Source: Minisyncoccota bacterium
GTDB taxonomy: Bacteria; Patescibacteriota; Minisyncoccia; JBAYJV01
Direction: 5' to 3'
NCBI GenBank assembly: GCA_041664925.1
Contig: JBAYJV010000002.1
Span: 72,302-136,301, forward strand
Length of the DNA: 64,000 bases
The position numbers were made by a program, and so were the translations under genes. The stretch's first letter is position 1; each line of letters starts with the position of its first letter. Of the stretch, positions 3,302 to 63,566 are shown one piece after another. Below the pieces are notes generated by a model. The model had not been told where the DNA came from. It was given only the letters and a program-made list of their open reading frames with translations, and did not search any database.

Positions 3302-3368
3302 CAAAAATCCTTGTTTCTGGTTTTAACCCTGTTTTTTTGTTGTAGTATGATGTTTTGTTTCCAAAATT

Positions 3369-3402
3369 TTTCACTTTTCACTTTAAATTTTAAACTTTCT
3401 AT
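3369..3402 (+). promoter_or_regulatory. class-II conserved promoter motif TTTTCACTTTAAATTTTAAACTTTCTAT abutting tRNA-His
   Basis: same roughly 30-nt motif recurs at 12668-12700, 12963-12998 and 22568-22600, each ending 0-2 nt before a tRNA 5' end or a start codon. Confidence 0.45.
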
Positions 3403-3481: not shown

Positions 3482-3561
3482 TGAACCGCGTTGGGTTCAT
3501 GGTTGTGTACCCTACGCGGTACATAACTCAGCGATACCCGACGGACTGATTTTGAAAACTT

Positions 3562-3822
3562 ATGTGTTACTATGTATATGTTTTGCGCAGCCTAAAAGAC
3601 GGCTGTTTTTATATTGGTTTTACCAATAATCTAAAAAGAAGATTTTCTCAACACAATTCTGGTCAAGTTAAGAGTACAAAAAGCAGGAGACCATTTAAGA
3701 TAATGTATTACGAGGCTCATACTTCAAAAAAAGATGCGAAAAGAAGGGAGCAATATTTCAAATCTACTAAAGGGAAAAGTACCTTAAGGCAAATGCTCAG
3801 AAATGCACTAGATCAAAAGTAA
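3562..3822 (+). CDS. GIY-YIG nuclease superfamily protein (YhbQ-like small endonuclease)
   Basis: YVYVLRSLKDGCFYIGFTNNLKRRFSQHNSG matches GIY-x10-YIG...R...H/N motif; sits directly 3' of tRNA-His. Confidence 0.6.
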   Translation: MCYYVYVLRSLKDGCFYIGFTNNLKRRFSQHNSGQVKSTKSRRPFKIMYYEAHTSKKDAKRREQYFKSTKGKSTLRQMLRNALDQK

Positions 3823-3887
3823 GGCGCGTTTTAGAATATATTGATCCTGAGGAGCGCAAGCGACGAATGGACAACAATAACTTAAAG

Positions 3888-3910
3888 TCACGCCTGGCGT
3901 GGCTTTTTGT
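3888..3910 (+). terminator. intrinsic terminator after GIY-YIG gene (CACGCCtGGCGTG + T-run)
   Basis: hairpin followed by CTTTTTGTT. Confidence 0.45.
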
Positions 3911-3962
3911 TGTACATGGTATCATATATTTTTAGTTTGTTGCGTATAAATTTGTAGGGGTA

Positions 3963-3990
3963 TTGACAAGGTTTATAATTTTGATAGTAT
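3963..3990 (+). promoter_or_regulatory. promoter TTGACA-16-TAGTAT driving an ORF-less GC-rich transcript
   Basis: consensus -35 at 3963-3968, -10 at 3985-3990. Confidence 0.45.
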
Positions 3991-3996
3991 GGTGAT

Positions 3997-4238
3997 ACGG
4001 TTTCGCTAGGGACCCTAGGGAGGTAAGGGGACATTAACTGGAGACAGCAGGTGCTGCTGGTAGATCGAAGGAGGAGGTCCCGGGCAGGGACCGAACGCCC
4101 ACGATCCCTTCGTGAGCATACAGGCCAGATACTCTATTGCCTTAGGGGAATGAGCTGTCATCAGGCGAGTTAACTAACCAAACCTGGCAACTCTAGCGAA
4201 CACCAATGACCGAGGAAAGACTCCTCGGTCATTTTTTA
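3997..4238 (+). ncRNA. candidate structured small RNA (about 240 nt), identity unresolved
   Basis: GC-rich, no ORF, own promoter and terminator (GACCGAGGAaagacTCCTCGGTC+T6 at 4207-4238); 5' GGTTTCGCTAG can pair 3' CTAGCGAAC-ACC; internal hairpins CAGCAGgtgCTGCTG and GGTCCCgggcaGGGACC. Confidence 0.4.
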
Positions 4239-4320
4239 TATAATAAGTTCCAACTAAATCGCATAGCCATCCCATACAAAAAAAGCAAGGAGATTAATCC
4301 TTGCTTTTTATTTTTTAATT

Positions 4321-4677
4321 TTATTTTTCCTCAATTATATTTCTCATTCTTTCTTTAAACGCCCTTATTTGTGTTGCGTATTCTCCTACTTGATTTCTTT
4401 CTCTTTCAGCAGTAGCAGTAGCAGCAATTCTTTCTTTTTTTTTCAGAACATCTGCATAAACTTCATCAAGCCAATCGAGGTAATATTCTCTCTGATTGAC
4501 TTCGTCGTCTGAGTCCATAAATTCTCCCATTTTTTCTATTTCAGTTTCAAGTCTTTTTCTTTTACTTTCGTACTCTTTAATTCTTCTCTCGTCCTCTGGT
4601 GTCCACGTTTCTTCTGCATGTCCTTCTGTTTTATCTTGTTCAATATTTTCTCCAGGCATAAATTTAAAATAAATCAC
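4321..4677 (-). CDS. hypothetical charged coiled-coil protein
   Basis: 118 aa, Glu/Lys/Arg-rich (RRIKEYESKRKRLETEIEKMGEF...); no motif. Confidence 0.35.
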   Translation of the reverse strand: MIYFKFMPGENIEQDKTEGHAEETWTPEDERRIKEYESKRKRLETEIEKMGEFMDSDDEVNQREYYLDWLDEVYADVLKKKERIAATATAERERNQVGEYATQIRAFKERMRNIIEEK

Positions 4678-4805
4678 ATTTAAAAAATCTATTTAATTAT
4701 ATAGTAACAAATTCAACTTCATTAAACAAGAGATATAATCTCTTAAAAGTTCAATAATCATTTAATCAGAAAAGATATAATCCGTAATAAAATAAGTTCT
4801 TATTG

Positions 4806-4876
4806 ACGGGACTTTTTTGCTGTGCCCGTCCGAAGTCCTGCCTGACGCCTGCCTGATGGAGTCAGGGTAGGCAGGT
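4806..4876. repeat. GC-rich palindromic intergenic element (CCTGCCTGA...TCAGGGTAGGCAGG family)
   Basis: locally GC-rich inverted repeats in AT-rich spacer; related cores at 17895-17925, 24089-24135, 48776-48815, 50166-50228. Confidence 0.45.
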
Positions 4877-4910
4877 TTAAACGAAGAAGGGGTTCCAGTC
4901 TTGACTTTGA

Positions 4911-4939
4911 ATATTCTTTGTGATAGAATGCATATAGAA
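4911..4939 (+). promoter_or_regulatory. promoter TTGACT-17-TAGAAT for two-gene small-protein operon
   Basis: consensus hexamers; RBS AAAAGGAGG 5 nt before ATG 4956. Confidence 0.5.
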
Positions 4940-4955
4940 ATCAAAAGGAGGAACC

Positions 4956-5246
4956 ATGTCAGATCTGCAACTAGCGATGATGGAGGAAAATCGTCGTAAT
5001 TTGAAAGTGACTGTCCTACATCGACCTGGCGGGAAATGGACCAATATTGAGGTTGGTAGGCTGATTAACGGTCTTATGACTGAAGCAGTTCAGTGTCGTG
5101 ACCATCCTGAGTACGTTGTGCTTTATGGTCATTACACCAAAGAACAAACACTAGAGGCTCTCGGCGGTGTAATGGCTTATACAGCTATTCAGGTTACGGG
5201 AGCGGATGATCCGAGAATTCCATTTCCGACTGGTTTTTGCTTGTAG
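4956..5246 (+). CDS. hypothetical protein (96 aa)
   Basis: strong RBS AAAGGAGGAACC; no recognisable domain. Confidence 0.55.
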   Translation: MSDLQLAMMEENRRNLKVTVLHRPGGKWTNIEVGRLINGLMTEAVQCRDHPEYVVLYGHYTKEQTLEALGGVMAYTAIQVTGADDPRIPFPTGFCL

Positions 5247-5270
5247 AAAAAACGAACAAGGAGGCAAAAG

Positions 5271-5459
5271 GTGGGCAAGGAGCTTACGCAACTCATCGGA
5301 CAAATCGTGGATATCGTCATGTCTGATGGCGCAACAACGAGACTTGGAAGAAAACTTGAAAAGATTGATGGGAATAGGATTTACTTCTCTTTTAAAGGAC
5401 AAGAGGAGGTTCTTACGCTTGAAGAAATAGATGGAATTTATCCATCAGACGATGATTAA
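5271..5459 (+). CDS. hypothetical small protein (62 aa), possibly Sm-like fold; GTG start
   Basis: GGAGG 7 nt upstream of GTG; IGQIVDIVMSDGATTRLGRKLEKIDGNRIYF; terminator GGGACTGGaaagCCAGTCCC+T8 at 5474-5501. Confidence 0.5.
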   Translation: MGKELTQLIGQIVDIVMSDGATTRLGRKLEKIDGNRIYFSFKGQEEVLTLEEIDGIYPSDDD

Positions 5460-5555
5460 GCAACAGAAGTCATGGGACTGGAAAGCCAGTCCCTCTTTTT
5501 TATACATTTTTATTATGATTGATTTTTTGTTTAACTTGTTATATAATTGTTAGCA

Positions 5556-12493: not shown

Positions 12494-12667
12494 AAGTTAG
12501 TCCCCGAACTGCACTAGTCTGTTTCGGGGATTTTTTTTATTGTCTTTTATTTCATTATGAATTAAAATAGTATCATGAAATGCAAAATATAAAACGAAAA
12601 CTAGAAACGACGATTTAAGATTTTTAATTTTGCATTGTAATTTTCCACTTCTTGTGGTGAGCTTGTC

Positions 12668-22512: not shown

Positions 22513-22556
22513 GTCATCCTGAGTGAAGCGAAGGATCTCATTTGGTCTTTTTTCTG
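22513..22556. repeat. left half of MITE-like element (GTCATCCTGAGTGAAGCGAAGGATCTC...)
   Basis: matches left ends of 27766, 35281 and 62567 copies; truncated by the promoter motif and tRNA. Confidence 0.4.
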
Positions 22557-22567
22557 TTTCATTTTGC

Positions 22568-22600
22568 ACTTTTCACTTTTAATTTTAAACTTTTTTGCAT
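22568..22600 (+). promoter_or_regulatory. class-II motif (CACTTTTCACTTTTAATTTTAAACTTTTTTGCAT) abutting tRNA-Gln
   Basis: see 3369-3402. Confidence 0.4.
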
Positions 22601-27430: not shown

Positions 27431-27477
27431 AACCCTGAAGTACAATAAATTGACTTCAGGGTTATTGATTGCGTAAT
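27431..27477. repeat. hairpin repeat AACCCTGAAGT-N11-ACTTCAGGGTT + ATTGATTGCGTAAT
   Basis: near-identical inverted copy at 49988-50063. Confidence 0.5.
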
Positions 27478-27505
27478 TTTTCATAAATTCAAAAACACAA
27501 TCAAT

Positions 27506-27643
27506 AAAAAAAGAGGGGGTCCGACCTACTCGTCAGACCCCCCTGGCAAGAGACCTTTGCCGCAGCGCCGGATCATCGGCAAGCAGACTGGCAAAGGAGG
27601 TATGAGAGATACGGCAGGCTCTCGTAAAGTCTCCGCACTCTCA
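27506..27643 (-). ncRNA. candidate small RNA (about 135 nt) with perfect-consensus promoter and intrinsic terminator
   Basis: minus sense TTGACA(27677-27672)-16-TATAAT(27655-27650); GC-rich body with CCUCCUUUGCC anti-SD-like stretch; terminator GGGGGGTCTGacgagtagGTCGGACCCCC+T7; no ORF. Confidence 0.45.
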
Positions 27644-27702
27644 CTATCCATTATACTCCTATTTTAAGTTTTGTCAAGAGTTTTTTGAGAAAAAACGACC
27701 TT

Positions 27703-49956: not shown

Positions 49957-49987
49957 GTGGTGGGAGAAAAGCACTTCTCCCTTTTTT

Positions 49988-50063
49988 TATTGATTGCGTT
50001 TTTGAGCTAAGCGAAGATTACGCAATCAATAACCCTGAAGTCAATTCATTGTACTTCAGGGTT
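49988..50063. repeat. double-hairpin repeat (TTATTGATTGCGT..ACGCAATCAATAA then AACCCTGAAGT..ACTTCAGGGTT)
   Basis: inverted copy of 27431-27477. Confidence 0.5.
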
Positions 50064-62748: not shown

Positions 62749-62952
62749 CTATCTAAGAACTTGGGATCTTTGAGATCCTTGTTCAATACATACGTTTTCA
62801 AAATAAGCATCGAGGCCTTCTGTTACAAAATCTGTGAGTGTTTTCCTTTCAATAGCTGCTCTTATTTTAAAAGCAGTAACATGACAAGGAAAAAAATAGG
62901 TCGTAGACCGAACTCCTTTTCTCTTACGATCCCTTTTCTTTAGGCCAAACAT
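62749..62952 (-). CDS. small basic protein, possible ribbon-helix-helix (CopG/Arc-type) DNA-binding protein
   Basis: RBS AAAAGGAGGAAAG; KGVRSTTYFFPCHVTAFKIRAAIERKTLTDFVTEGLDAYFE (beta-strand then two helices); terminator GAGAGGACaagaaGTCCTCTC+T8 on minus sense. Confidence 0.4.
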   Translation of the reverse strand: MFGLKKRDRKRKGVRSTTYFFPCHVTAFKIRAAIERKTLTDFVTEGLDAYFENVCIEQGSQRSQVLR

Positions 62953-63014
62953 CTTTCCTCCTTTTAAAGAACCATTATTAGTTTATCTTAAAATCCACAA
63001 AAGTCAAAAAAAAG

Positions 63015-63566
63015 AAGATTAAAAAAGGACTCAGCTGACCTGAGTCCTTGTTGTTCCGAAGAGAAGATAGAGAACTAGTAAGGGATTGCCCTTTGGCGTT
63101 CCCTCGACAAGGGTCTGTTTCCATTTTAGGCTGGACTCGCCTAAAATTCACCTTGTTCAACTTTCTGACTCCGACCAGGAGACAGAATGATATCCCCGAT
63201 GGGATATTGTCCTAGCTACCAATTCTCGAGGTTTCCGGAAACTGGGAATCCTCACGTCCCTTCTCTTCGAGATCGCGAGATGCTTCGTCTCGCGCCTTTC
63301 CACGAAAAAGCAAGAAACGATCGTGCCTAAACCCCTTTGAGCGTAGAGCACATACTCGTGCCTTCTCTGTTATATCCAAGTTGCGCCTTAGATACAACGG
63401 CACTTTCTTGATCCTTATAGCGCCAGCGCAACAGTAGGATCAGACGTTTCCTCTAGGGTTTTGAGAAAAACCCAGCTTCTTCGTGTACCGAGTCATCCCG
63501 AGATGATCAGCTTCCGCCGCATCAAATCGGTATCGGATCTTCGAATATTATTTAGGAACTAATTAT
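63015..63566 (-). ncRNA. candidate large (about 550 nt) GC-rich structured RNA or long structured leader, identity unresolved
   Basis: minus-sense promoter TTGACA(63600-63595)-16-TAGAAT(63578-63573); GC-rich body with only short overlapping low-complexity ORFs; many local GC hairpins; ends at AAGGACTCAGgtcagcTGAGTCCTT + T6 (63048-63016). Confidence 0.4.

Follow-up and report, generated by a model that had tools for sequence, protein, structure and literature searches.

We have identified a candidate gene for a small non-coding RNA (ncRNA) in a stretch of 64,000 nucleotides, hereafter the window, from a Candidatus Paceibacterota bacterium of the candidate phyla radiation (CPR). Our preferred reading, to which we give roughly even chances, is that this is an accessory, lineage-specific and independently transcribed gene. 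We do not take its product for a universal housekeeping RNA, nor for a cis-regulator or an mRNA. The candidate is framed by promoter and terminator signals, its two ends form a long rod, its GC content is an outlier, it lacks coding potential, it matches no Rfam family and it is absent from the syntenic slot in relatives. Its transcription, stability and mode of action we infer from the sequence.

A candidate for an isolated, rod-closed transcription unit

An initial annotation of this region had proposed that it holds a non-coding unit which is transcribed on its own and closed end to end by a helix. The sequence bears out this appearance, and all of the sequence features that had been listed were confirmed in place (Table 1). 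These include the TTGACA-16-TAGTAT promoter and the terminator with its T run, which as DNA has the stem AATGACCGAGGA/TCCTCGGTCATT (4205-4233) and directly adjoins the RNA body. Transcription is predicted to start at about 3997-3999, 1-2 nt ahead of the 206-nt body. The gap between promoter and body is 8 nt; the closing rod starts 8 nt past the -10 element, and the terminator stem follows on it without a gap.

Table 1. The candidate RNA gene and its immediate surroundings, in window coordinates
Feature	Position	Strand	Remarks
Terminator-like hairpin ahead of the RNA promoter	3884-3906	+	Ends the upstream unit (tRNA-His and GIY-YIG gene)
Strain-unique cassette	3891-4273		383 nt: hairpin, promoter, RNA, terminator and a further 35 nt or so
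Sigma-70-type promoter	3963-3990	+	TTGACA-N16-(TGA)TAGTAT; extended -10 (TG); 10 of 12 consensus matches
Candidate RNA body	3999-4204	+	206 nt; 55.8% GC; without a credible ORF
5' arm of closing rod	3999-4048	+	RNA nt 1-50; pairs with 4154-4204
Central domain	4049-4153	+	RNA nt 51-155; 105 nt; purine-rich; predicted structure uncertain
Shine-Dalgarno-like AAGGAGGAGG	4068-4077	+	In the central domain
Hairpin GGUCCC-GGGCA-GGGACC	4076-4092	+	Apex of a longer imperfect hairpin (4063-4106); pair probability 0.84
3' arm of closing rod	4154-4204	+	RNA nt 156-206; pairs with 3999-4048
Intrinsic terminator	4205-4237	+	Stem AAUGACCGAGGA/UCCUCGGUCAUU, 12 bp, perfect; loop AAGAC; then a U run

The promoter belongs to the genome's own class. 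Counting every perfect TTGACA followed by a spacer of N16-18 and a TAnnnT -10 element, we found 23 sites over the 64-kb window against 5.3 +/- 2.3 in shuffles, a 4-fold excess. The majority of these sites lie immediately upstream of ORFs or of tRNA-Glu, and the class is also represented in four repeat families of the window (D1, D6, D12 and D16). The RNA unit stands alone, because the upstream hairpin closes the preceding unit and the next gene downstream (4321-4659, 112 aa) is convergent and has its own terminator. Nor is the cassette an assembly artefact, since it lies within 2.2 kb of sequence that three assemblies made independently of each other (JGI 3300037810, Logan SRR6484324 and Logan SRR18595301) have at 100% identity. 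When the 64 kb were tiled for GC content the 206-nt body was the top tile, at 55.8% against a mean of 35.7% (z = 3.6).

The gene arrangement bears directly on whether the element could be a cis-regulatory leader or riboswitch, with the terminator as its expression platform. A GC-rich, structured element directly before an intrinsic terminator is what such a regulator would look like, but there is no + strand gene downstream, only the convergent gene with its own terminator. Furthermore, no Rfam riboswitch or leader model matches, and the predicted fold shows no competition between terminator stem and rod. This explanation is hardly credible, and is effectively refuted by the gene arrangement.

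The pairing of the two ends had been claimed for GGTTTCGCTAG (3999-4009) and CTAGCGAAC-ACC (4193-4204). Both are present, and the closing helix proved to be far longer than the 11 nt first read: RNA nt 1-50 and nt 156-206 are predicted to form a 38-bp imperfect rod, with pair probabilities mostly of 0.9-1.0. The two arms are predicted to form a duplex of -47.4 kcal/mol, where arms with shuffled dinucleotides reach -22.1 +/- 3.6 (z = -7.0), and none of 2000 shuffles was as stable. It is composed of 33 Watson-Crick and 5 G.U pairs, 2 A.C and 9 transversion mismatches, and 3 gaps. The 5:2 ratio of G.U to A.C leans in the direction of a + strand RNA, a tendency that is statistically not significant.

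The central domain carries GGAGG/AAGGAGG-type motifs. It folds with a z-score of -0.1 (419 of 1000 shuffles were equally stable), and its pair probabilities are mostly 0.3-0.67, except for the hairpin at 4076-4092. This hairpin, GGTCCC-gggca-GGGACC, is the one among the internal hairpins of the initial annotation that the predicted fold retains. The sequences CAGCAGgtgCTGCTG and CCCTAGGG are both present in the segment, but the CAGCAG/CTGCTG hairpin and the CCCTAGGG palindrome (CAGCAG/CUGCUG and CCCUAGGG in the RNA) have a probability of about zero in the ensemble, because the rod takes up those bases.

The unit as a whole folds with z = -6.7, a value inflated by the terminator. The body alone reaches -80.6 kcal/mol (z = -3.5) on the + strand versus -70.8 kcal/mol (z = -2.4) on the - strand, and against the background of 206-nt tiles across the window (z of -0.62 +/- 1.59) its -3.5 is only about 1.8 standard deviations off the mean. 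The excess in predicted folding stability is confined to the end-to-end rod, with none in the central domain. The label 'structured RNA' draws on three things only: the rod, a high GC content and the signals on either side.

The main sceptical alternative is that the feature belongs to the DNA, as a diverged inverted repeat, a MITE-like element or a recombination scar with no function as RNA, and that any transcript would be a by-product. The excess structure does amount to a roughly collinear inverted repeat of 50 nt, with mostly symmetric mismatches around an unremarkable centre; the - strand folds too, and gains and losses cluster in the slot that follows tRNA-His. Yet promoter and terminator flank the repeat with single-nucleotide precision, Watson-Crick pairing of the arms as DNA amounts to only 66% and G.U pairs are needed, and a GC content of 55.8% in a 36% GC genome is typical of a selected RNA. 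The repeat also has no second copy, either in the window or across some 300 kb of retrieved loci, and its ends carry no target-site duplication, two observations on which a MITE or other repeated palindromic element was rejected. Altogether, we judge an origin at the DNA level to be unlikely.

Coding potential and known RNA families

The longest same-strand ORF in the RNA is an Arg-rich frame of 40 aa with a GTG start (4051-4173). Its codon log-odds are -0.84 per codon versus +0.25 for real genes, its GC3 is 54% versus 28% in the genome, and AGA is used at none of its 9 Arg codons. A phmmer search with this frame against 1.84 billion protein representatives returned no homologue, a six-frame concatenate of the RNA found nothing among 5.8 billion clusters, and an exact look-up of a 48-aa antisense ORF also found nothing. 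By codon usage and homologue searches no ORF is credible, and the segment appears to be free of coding signal, as the initial annotation had it.

These results also weigh on a small, highly structured mRNA akin to those of type I toxins, in which the 5'-3' pairing would silence a short ORF. In hok- and AapA1-type mRNAs a long-distance 5'-3' interaction locks the RNA, and the end-to-end helix and the buried Shine-Dalgarno-like sequences of our candidate recall this architecture. Like those mRNAs, the candidate comes as a strain-specific, self-contained cassette with a strong promoter and terminator, and it sits in a variable intergenic slot. The ORF in question would be the 40-aa GTG frame or one of 46 aa, read from an AUU with GGGAGGU as its Shine-Dalgarno sequence. 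However, the toxin mRNAs have a short, usually hydrophobic ORF with a Shine-Dalgarno sequence, and an antisense partner, and for the candidate neither a credible ORF of this kind nor such a partner was found: the peptide is Arg-rich, its codon usage is anti-genomic, neither the 1.84 billion representatives nor the six-frame search yielded a homologue, and there is no antisense promoter to be found inside the unit. An open frame of 48 codons is, moreover, expected by chance at such GC. A toxin mRNA is thus very unlikely, and we consider this reading and the cis-regulatory one largely refuted.

Searching the whole 64-kb window with Rfam 15 at the gathering score gave three tRNAs and nothing else. 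An Rfam search was among the checks that the initial annotation had proposed, and even at E <= 10 it identified no family: there was only noise (terminator-like matches) on a 501-nt region, and again only noise when the RNA was searched by itself under the laxest filters. At this threshold the models of 6S, SRP, RNase P, tmRNA and Y RNA were all absent, as were those of riboswitches and ribozymes. ARAGORN found the same number of tRNAs in the window, no tmRNA, and no tRNA-like domain in the RNA. With neither program producing a match, the claim that motifs diagnostic of known families are absent stands.

A divergent housekeeping rod RNA that lies beyond the Rfam models is, in our estimate, quite unlikely. 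Its most plausible form would be 6S-like, or else it would be Y-RNA- or SRP-like. 6S RNA (SsrS) binds the sigma-70 RNA polymerase holoenzyme and templates a product RNA. At 206 nt the candidate resembles it in size (about 200 nt), in being its own transcription unit and in its rod-dominated shape, with a long irregular stem of the 5' and 3' ends closing around a poorly paired middle. The strong, constitutive-type promoter and a GC content as high as in the genome's tRNAs would fit too. Our literature search returned nothing relevant on these sequence strings or on 6S RNA and ncRNAs in CPR bacteria; as we found no paper that mentions 6S together with the candidate phyla radiation, a divergent CPR 6S RNA could escape recognition.

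Several observations stand against this. The candidate shows no covariance-model similarity: RF00013 and the related 6S models gave no match at E <= 10, either on 501 nt or on the RNA alone, and with the laxest filters the SRP, RNase P and Y RNA models did no better. The middle of 6S RNA is a two-sided, open-promoter-like bubble with a terminal stem, whereas the middle predicted here from a single sequence is branched and very asymmetric, with 2-14 nt on its 5' side, 34-47 nt on its 3' side and extra hairpins. Finally, 6S is a core gene, and the candidate is not kept at the syntenic site in relatives of 75-90% nt identity, which would be unusual for a core RNA, although it could lie at another place in their genomes.

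The remaining housekeeping RNAs fare no better. Domain IV of SRP RNA has a GNRA-type tetraloop, a symmetric loop with a 3' AGCA and an asymmetric loop. It was ruled out, as the apex of the candidate is a GGGCA pentaloop, its 3' internal loop is GAAC and no SRP model matches at E <= 10. In RNase P RNA, CR-I (GAGGAAAGUCC) and CR-V (ACAGAA..GGCUUA) form the P4 helix. The candidate's GGAGGAGGUCC has a loose likeness to CR-I only; it is without a complementary 3' strand because the rod uses up the 3' region, no P4 partner was seen by inspection, and no model matches at E <= 10. A further RNase P reading, by way of UAGNNGAAUGANCUGUC, which resembles J18/2-P2 of E. coli M1 RNA, was rejected with no P4 and no covariance-model support. 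A tmRNA, which would have a tRNA-like domain and a tag reading frame, was dismissed as well, ARAGORN and Rfam both being without a match.

Bacterial Y RNAs combine a Ro-binding stem with a tRNA-like module, with an rsr gene in the genome. These RNAs (YrlA/Yrn1, the partners of Rsr/Ro) share with the candidate the pairing of the ends into a long stem, a less structured effector module and an accessory, patchy distribution. Unlike them, the candidate has no tRNA-like module and no Rfam Y RNA or YrlA match; among the annotated neighbours of the RNA there is no rsr, rtcB or TROVE protein.

Some other classes were considered and set aside. Retron msr-msd RNAs have an a1/a2 closing helix and a reverse-transcriptase gene immediately downstream; here a closing helix is present, but it is followed by the terminator and the convergent 112-aa gene, with no reverse transcriptase adjoining. 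An omega, bridge or tracr RNA was rejected with no TnpB/IscB, IS110 or Cas gene beside the RNA. The internal loop at 4070-4100 departs from the K-turn consensus, and the core sites of an integron attC do not fit.

As for homologues, nhmmer, blastn and a single-sequence covariance model (R1) detected no other copy of the RNA, be it in the window or among some 300 kb of retrieved loci that include the syntenic contigs of relatives, and blastn against phages and plasmids gave no match to it. A scan of genome contigs with the pattern GGAGGAGGTCCCN{4,6}GGGACC had random GC-rich genomes among the matches listed, and nhmmer over 119 loci from those matches listed found no homologue; this pattern is too GC-rich and so makes a weak homologue search. 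The pattern GAAGGAGGAGN6GGGCAN6GAACG had 8 random GC-rich matches in metagenome contigs; the source contig was not one of them, so this collection does not hold the source organism. Pattern scans of viral contigs gave nothing real, 4 matches being rejected by the covariance model. The RNA is an orphan within the collections searched. Because no homologue was found, it has no covariation and no evidence of purifying selection.

In this respect the RNA can be compared with the GC-rich intergenic candidates that come from screens of GC content and intergenic regions (IGRs) in single genomes, with which it shares a GC-rich IGR in an AT-rich genome and the lack of an ORF. Such screens accept a candidate only if its homologues give covariation (PMC8632094, PMC11109978), whereas the present RNA, for which no homologue was found, would rank as an unconfirmed singleton.

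The variable slot downstream of tRNA-His

Syntenic contigs were obtained via homologues of the neighbouring 84-aa and 96-aa proteins, and three syntenic relatives (L121, L122 and L128-131) have 75-90% nt identity to the window. L121, whose flanks are 84% identical in nucleotides, retains Adk, tRNA-Glu, the 84-aa gene and tRNA-His, and also a 70-nt piece (window 3820-3890); homology ends at 3890 and unrelated DNA follows. In L122, window position 3869 is joined to 5461, and the RNA and three small genes are missing with the rest of 3870-5460. In L128-131, whose nt identity is 80-90%, tRNA-His, the GIY-YIG gene and both the 112-aa and 96-aa genes are present, and a DUF4116 gene and a short 'element X' lie between the GIY-YIG and 112-aa genes. 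The homology of L128 to the window stops at 3843 and resumes at 4274.

On these comparisons, this lineage has probably gained the cassette, in an intergenic slot that is hypervariable: each of the GIY-YIG gene, the DUF4116 gene, element X and the cassette itself occurs in only some of the relatives. A gain that replaced element X would be the most parsimonious scenario, because element X is common to L121 and L128. As the cassette is a probable lineage-specific gain, a housekeeping role is disfavoured. The initial annotation had implied a likeness to core RNAs (SRP, 6S and RNase P). This analogy is not supported: the cassette is missing from the same slot in three syntenic relatives, and the failure to find a homologue and the lack of excess structure in the internal domain speak further against it. 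Overall, the earlier interpretation is partly supported, and the orphan is a plausible candidate for an accessory small RNA and not for a core RNA such as these.

The slot has further occupants. Element X itself (TAGCTTGCCCTGC[CT]TGTCCTGAGTTTAT[TC]GAAGGAAGTGAAATCGAAGGGTG followed by a T run) takes the place of the RNA cassette at 1838-1890 in L121 and 4722-4780 in L128. It was rejected as a functional analogue of the RNA, since it is not structured (z = -0.7 and +1.1). The GIY-YIG nuclease gene (3562-3822, 86 aa; region 3482-3843) is an insertion between tRNA-His and the downstream conserved piece: L121 and L122 have an intact hairpin (acacgcc...ggcgtgt) directly after tRNA-His and no GIY-YIG gene, and L128-131 share the insertion. 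Such a pattern is typical of a homing-type mobile nuclease. At 1900-2205 of L121, after a TTGACA promoter of their own, there are two G-rich stretches, made of GGCNNGG-type units at a spacing of about 8 nt (ggcaaggccgggcaaggttcggcgaggtctggcgtggcatggcagggtg); the gene downstream of them begins MTEFEYQEVTIEGLSPLLMHRFG, and they may be a leader RNA.

The genes beyond the slot also vary. The 5' region of the 96-aa gene (window 4800-4955) has a GC-rich, hairpin-like CCTGCCTGACGCCTGCCTGATGGAGTCAGGGTAGGCAGG upstream of a TTGACT-17-TAGAAT promoter, and in L128 a MerR-like gene is inserted there. A 62-aa ORF (window 5271-5459, + strand), co-transcribed with the 96-aa gene, seemed Sm/Hfq-like on visual inspection; L128 lacks it and has a non-homologous gene of 106 aa in its place, and Pfam returned nothing. 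As a putative Sm-like RNA partner it has a weak AlphaFold model (pLDDT 62.7) of one helix and three strands, for which Foldseek listed only non-significant small-barrel matches (Tudor, Hfq; E >= 0.4).

Elsewhere in the window we noticed a second stand-alone, sRNA-like cassette at 27505-27680 on the - strand. Its promoter, TTGACA-16-TATAAT, is perfect (-35 at 27677-27672), and the candidate of about 125 nt has two hairpins and a 12-bp terminator hairpin (GGGGGGUCUGAC/GUCGGACCCCCC) that is followed by U7. A single-stranded UACCUCCUUUG, which is anti-SD-like, is situated between the first and the second hairpin. The candidate folds with z = -5.0 and has no Rfam match. Beside it, the 83 nt at 27431-27513 recur as an inverted repeat at 49981-50063 (I1, 89% identity; 78% in L001).

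Dispersed repeats are a further feature of the window. The repeat D8 (GTCATCCTGAGCGCAGCGAAGGATCTC, about 27 nt) has 5 copies of 81-93% identity at 22513, 27766, 35282, 62568 and 62650, and a related TTGATCCTGAGGAGCGCAAGCGACGAATGG is found at 3848-3877, within the 70-nt post-tRNA-His piece that is conserved in L121 and L122. A 33-nt leader, ATTTT(T/G)CACTTTTCACTTT(A/T)AATTTTAAACTTT, precedes both tRNA-His (3366-3398) and tRNA-Gln (22561-22593) with 94% identity, and related copies of it (D11) lie at 12663 and 12964. Finally, the stretch 62950-63560 is GC-rich (about 51%) and matches no Rfam family; its only ORFs, none of them good, are short, overlap and lie on the - strand. It may be a decayed gene.

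Proposed role and significance

If the unit is an accessory ncRNA gene, as we favour, we envisage the following. The strong native-type promoter would start transcription and the intrinsic terminator would end the transcript at about 235-240 nt. Nucleotides 1-50 and the last 51 nt of the body would zip into the 38-bp imperfect rod, guarding both ends of the molecule. The rod would then present the purine-rich central domain of about 105 nt, with its GGAGG/AAGGAGG-type motifs and a GC-clamped hairpin. The most likely mode of action would be in trans, with the stable RNA binding its partner, a protein or another RNA, or sequestering it as a decoy. Predicted base-pairing of the RNA with the three tRNAs and with the second sRNA candidate was not better than with shuffles.

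A bolder hypothesis, which we regard as a long shot, is that CPR bacteria have an as yet unrecognised class of structured RNAs, closed by a rod and acquired horizontally, of which this RNA is the first to be seen. Such RNAs could, for example, be decoys that sequester proteins or ribosomes in phage or host conflict, or alternatively CPR-specific functional analogues of 6S or Y RNA. The relatives of the RNA would in this case lie outside the collections and the exact-pattern searches that we used.

A candidate from a single genome has its value as a lead for RNA-seq and is not a finding in itself. The comparison of relatives does point to the slot downstream of tRNA-His as a hot spot where close strains swap whole small cassettes. 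The CPR bacteria have tiny genomes and, to our knowledge, almost no characterised regulatory RNAs. If the RNA described here is highly expressed and stable, it would offer a rare handle on the post-transcriptional or conflict biology of these organisms.
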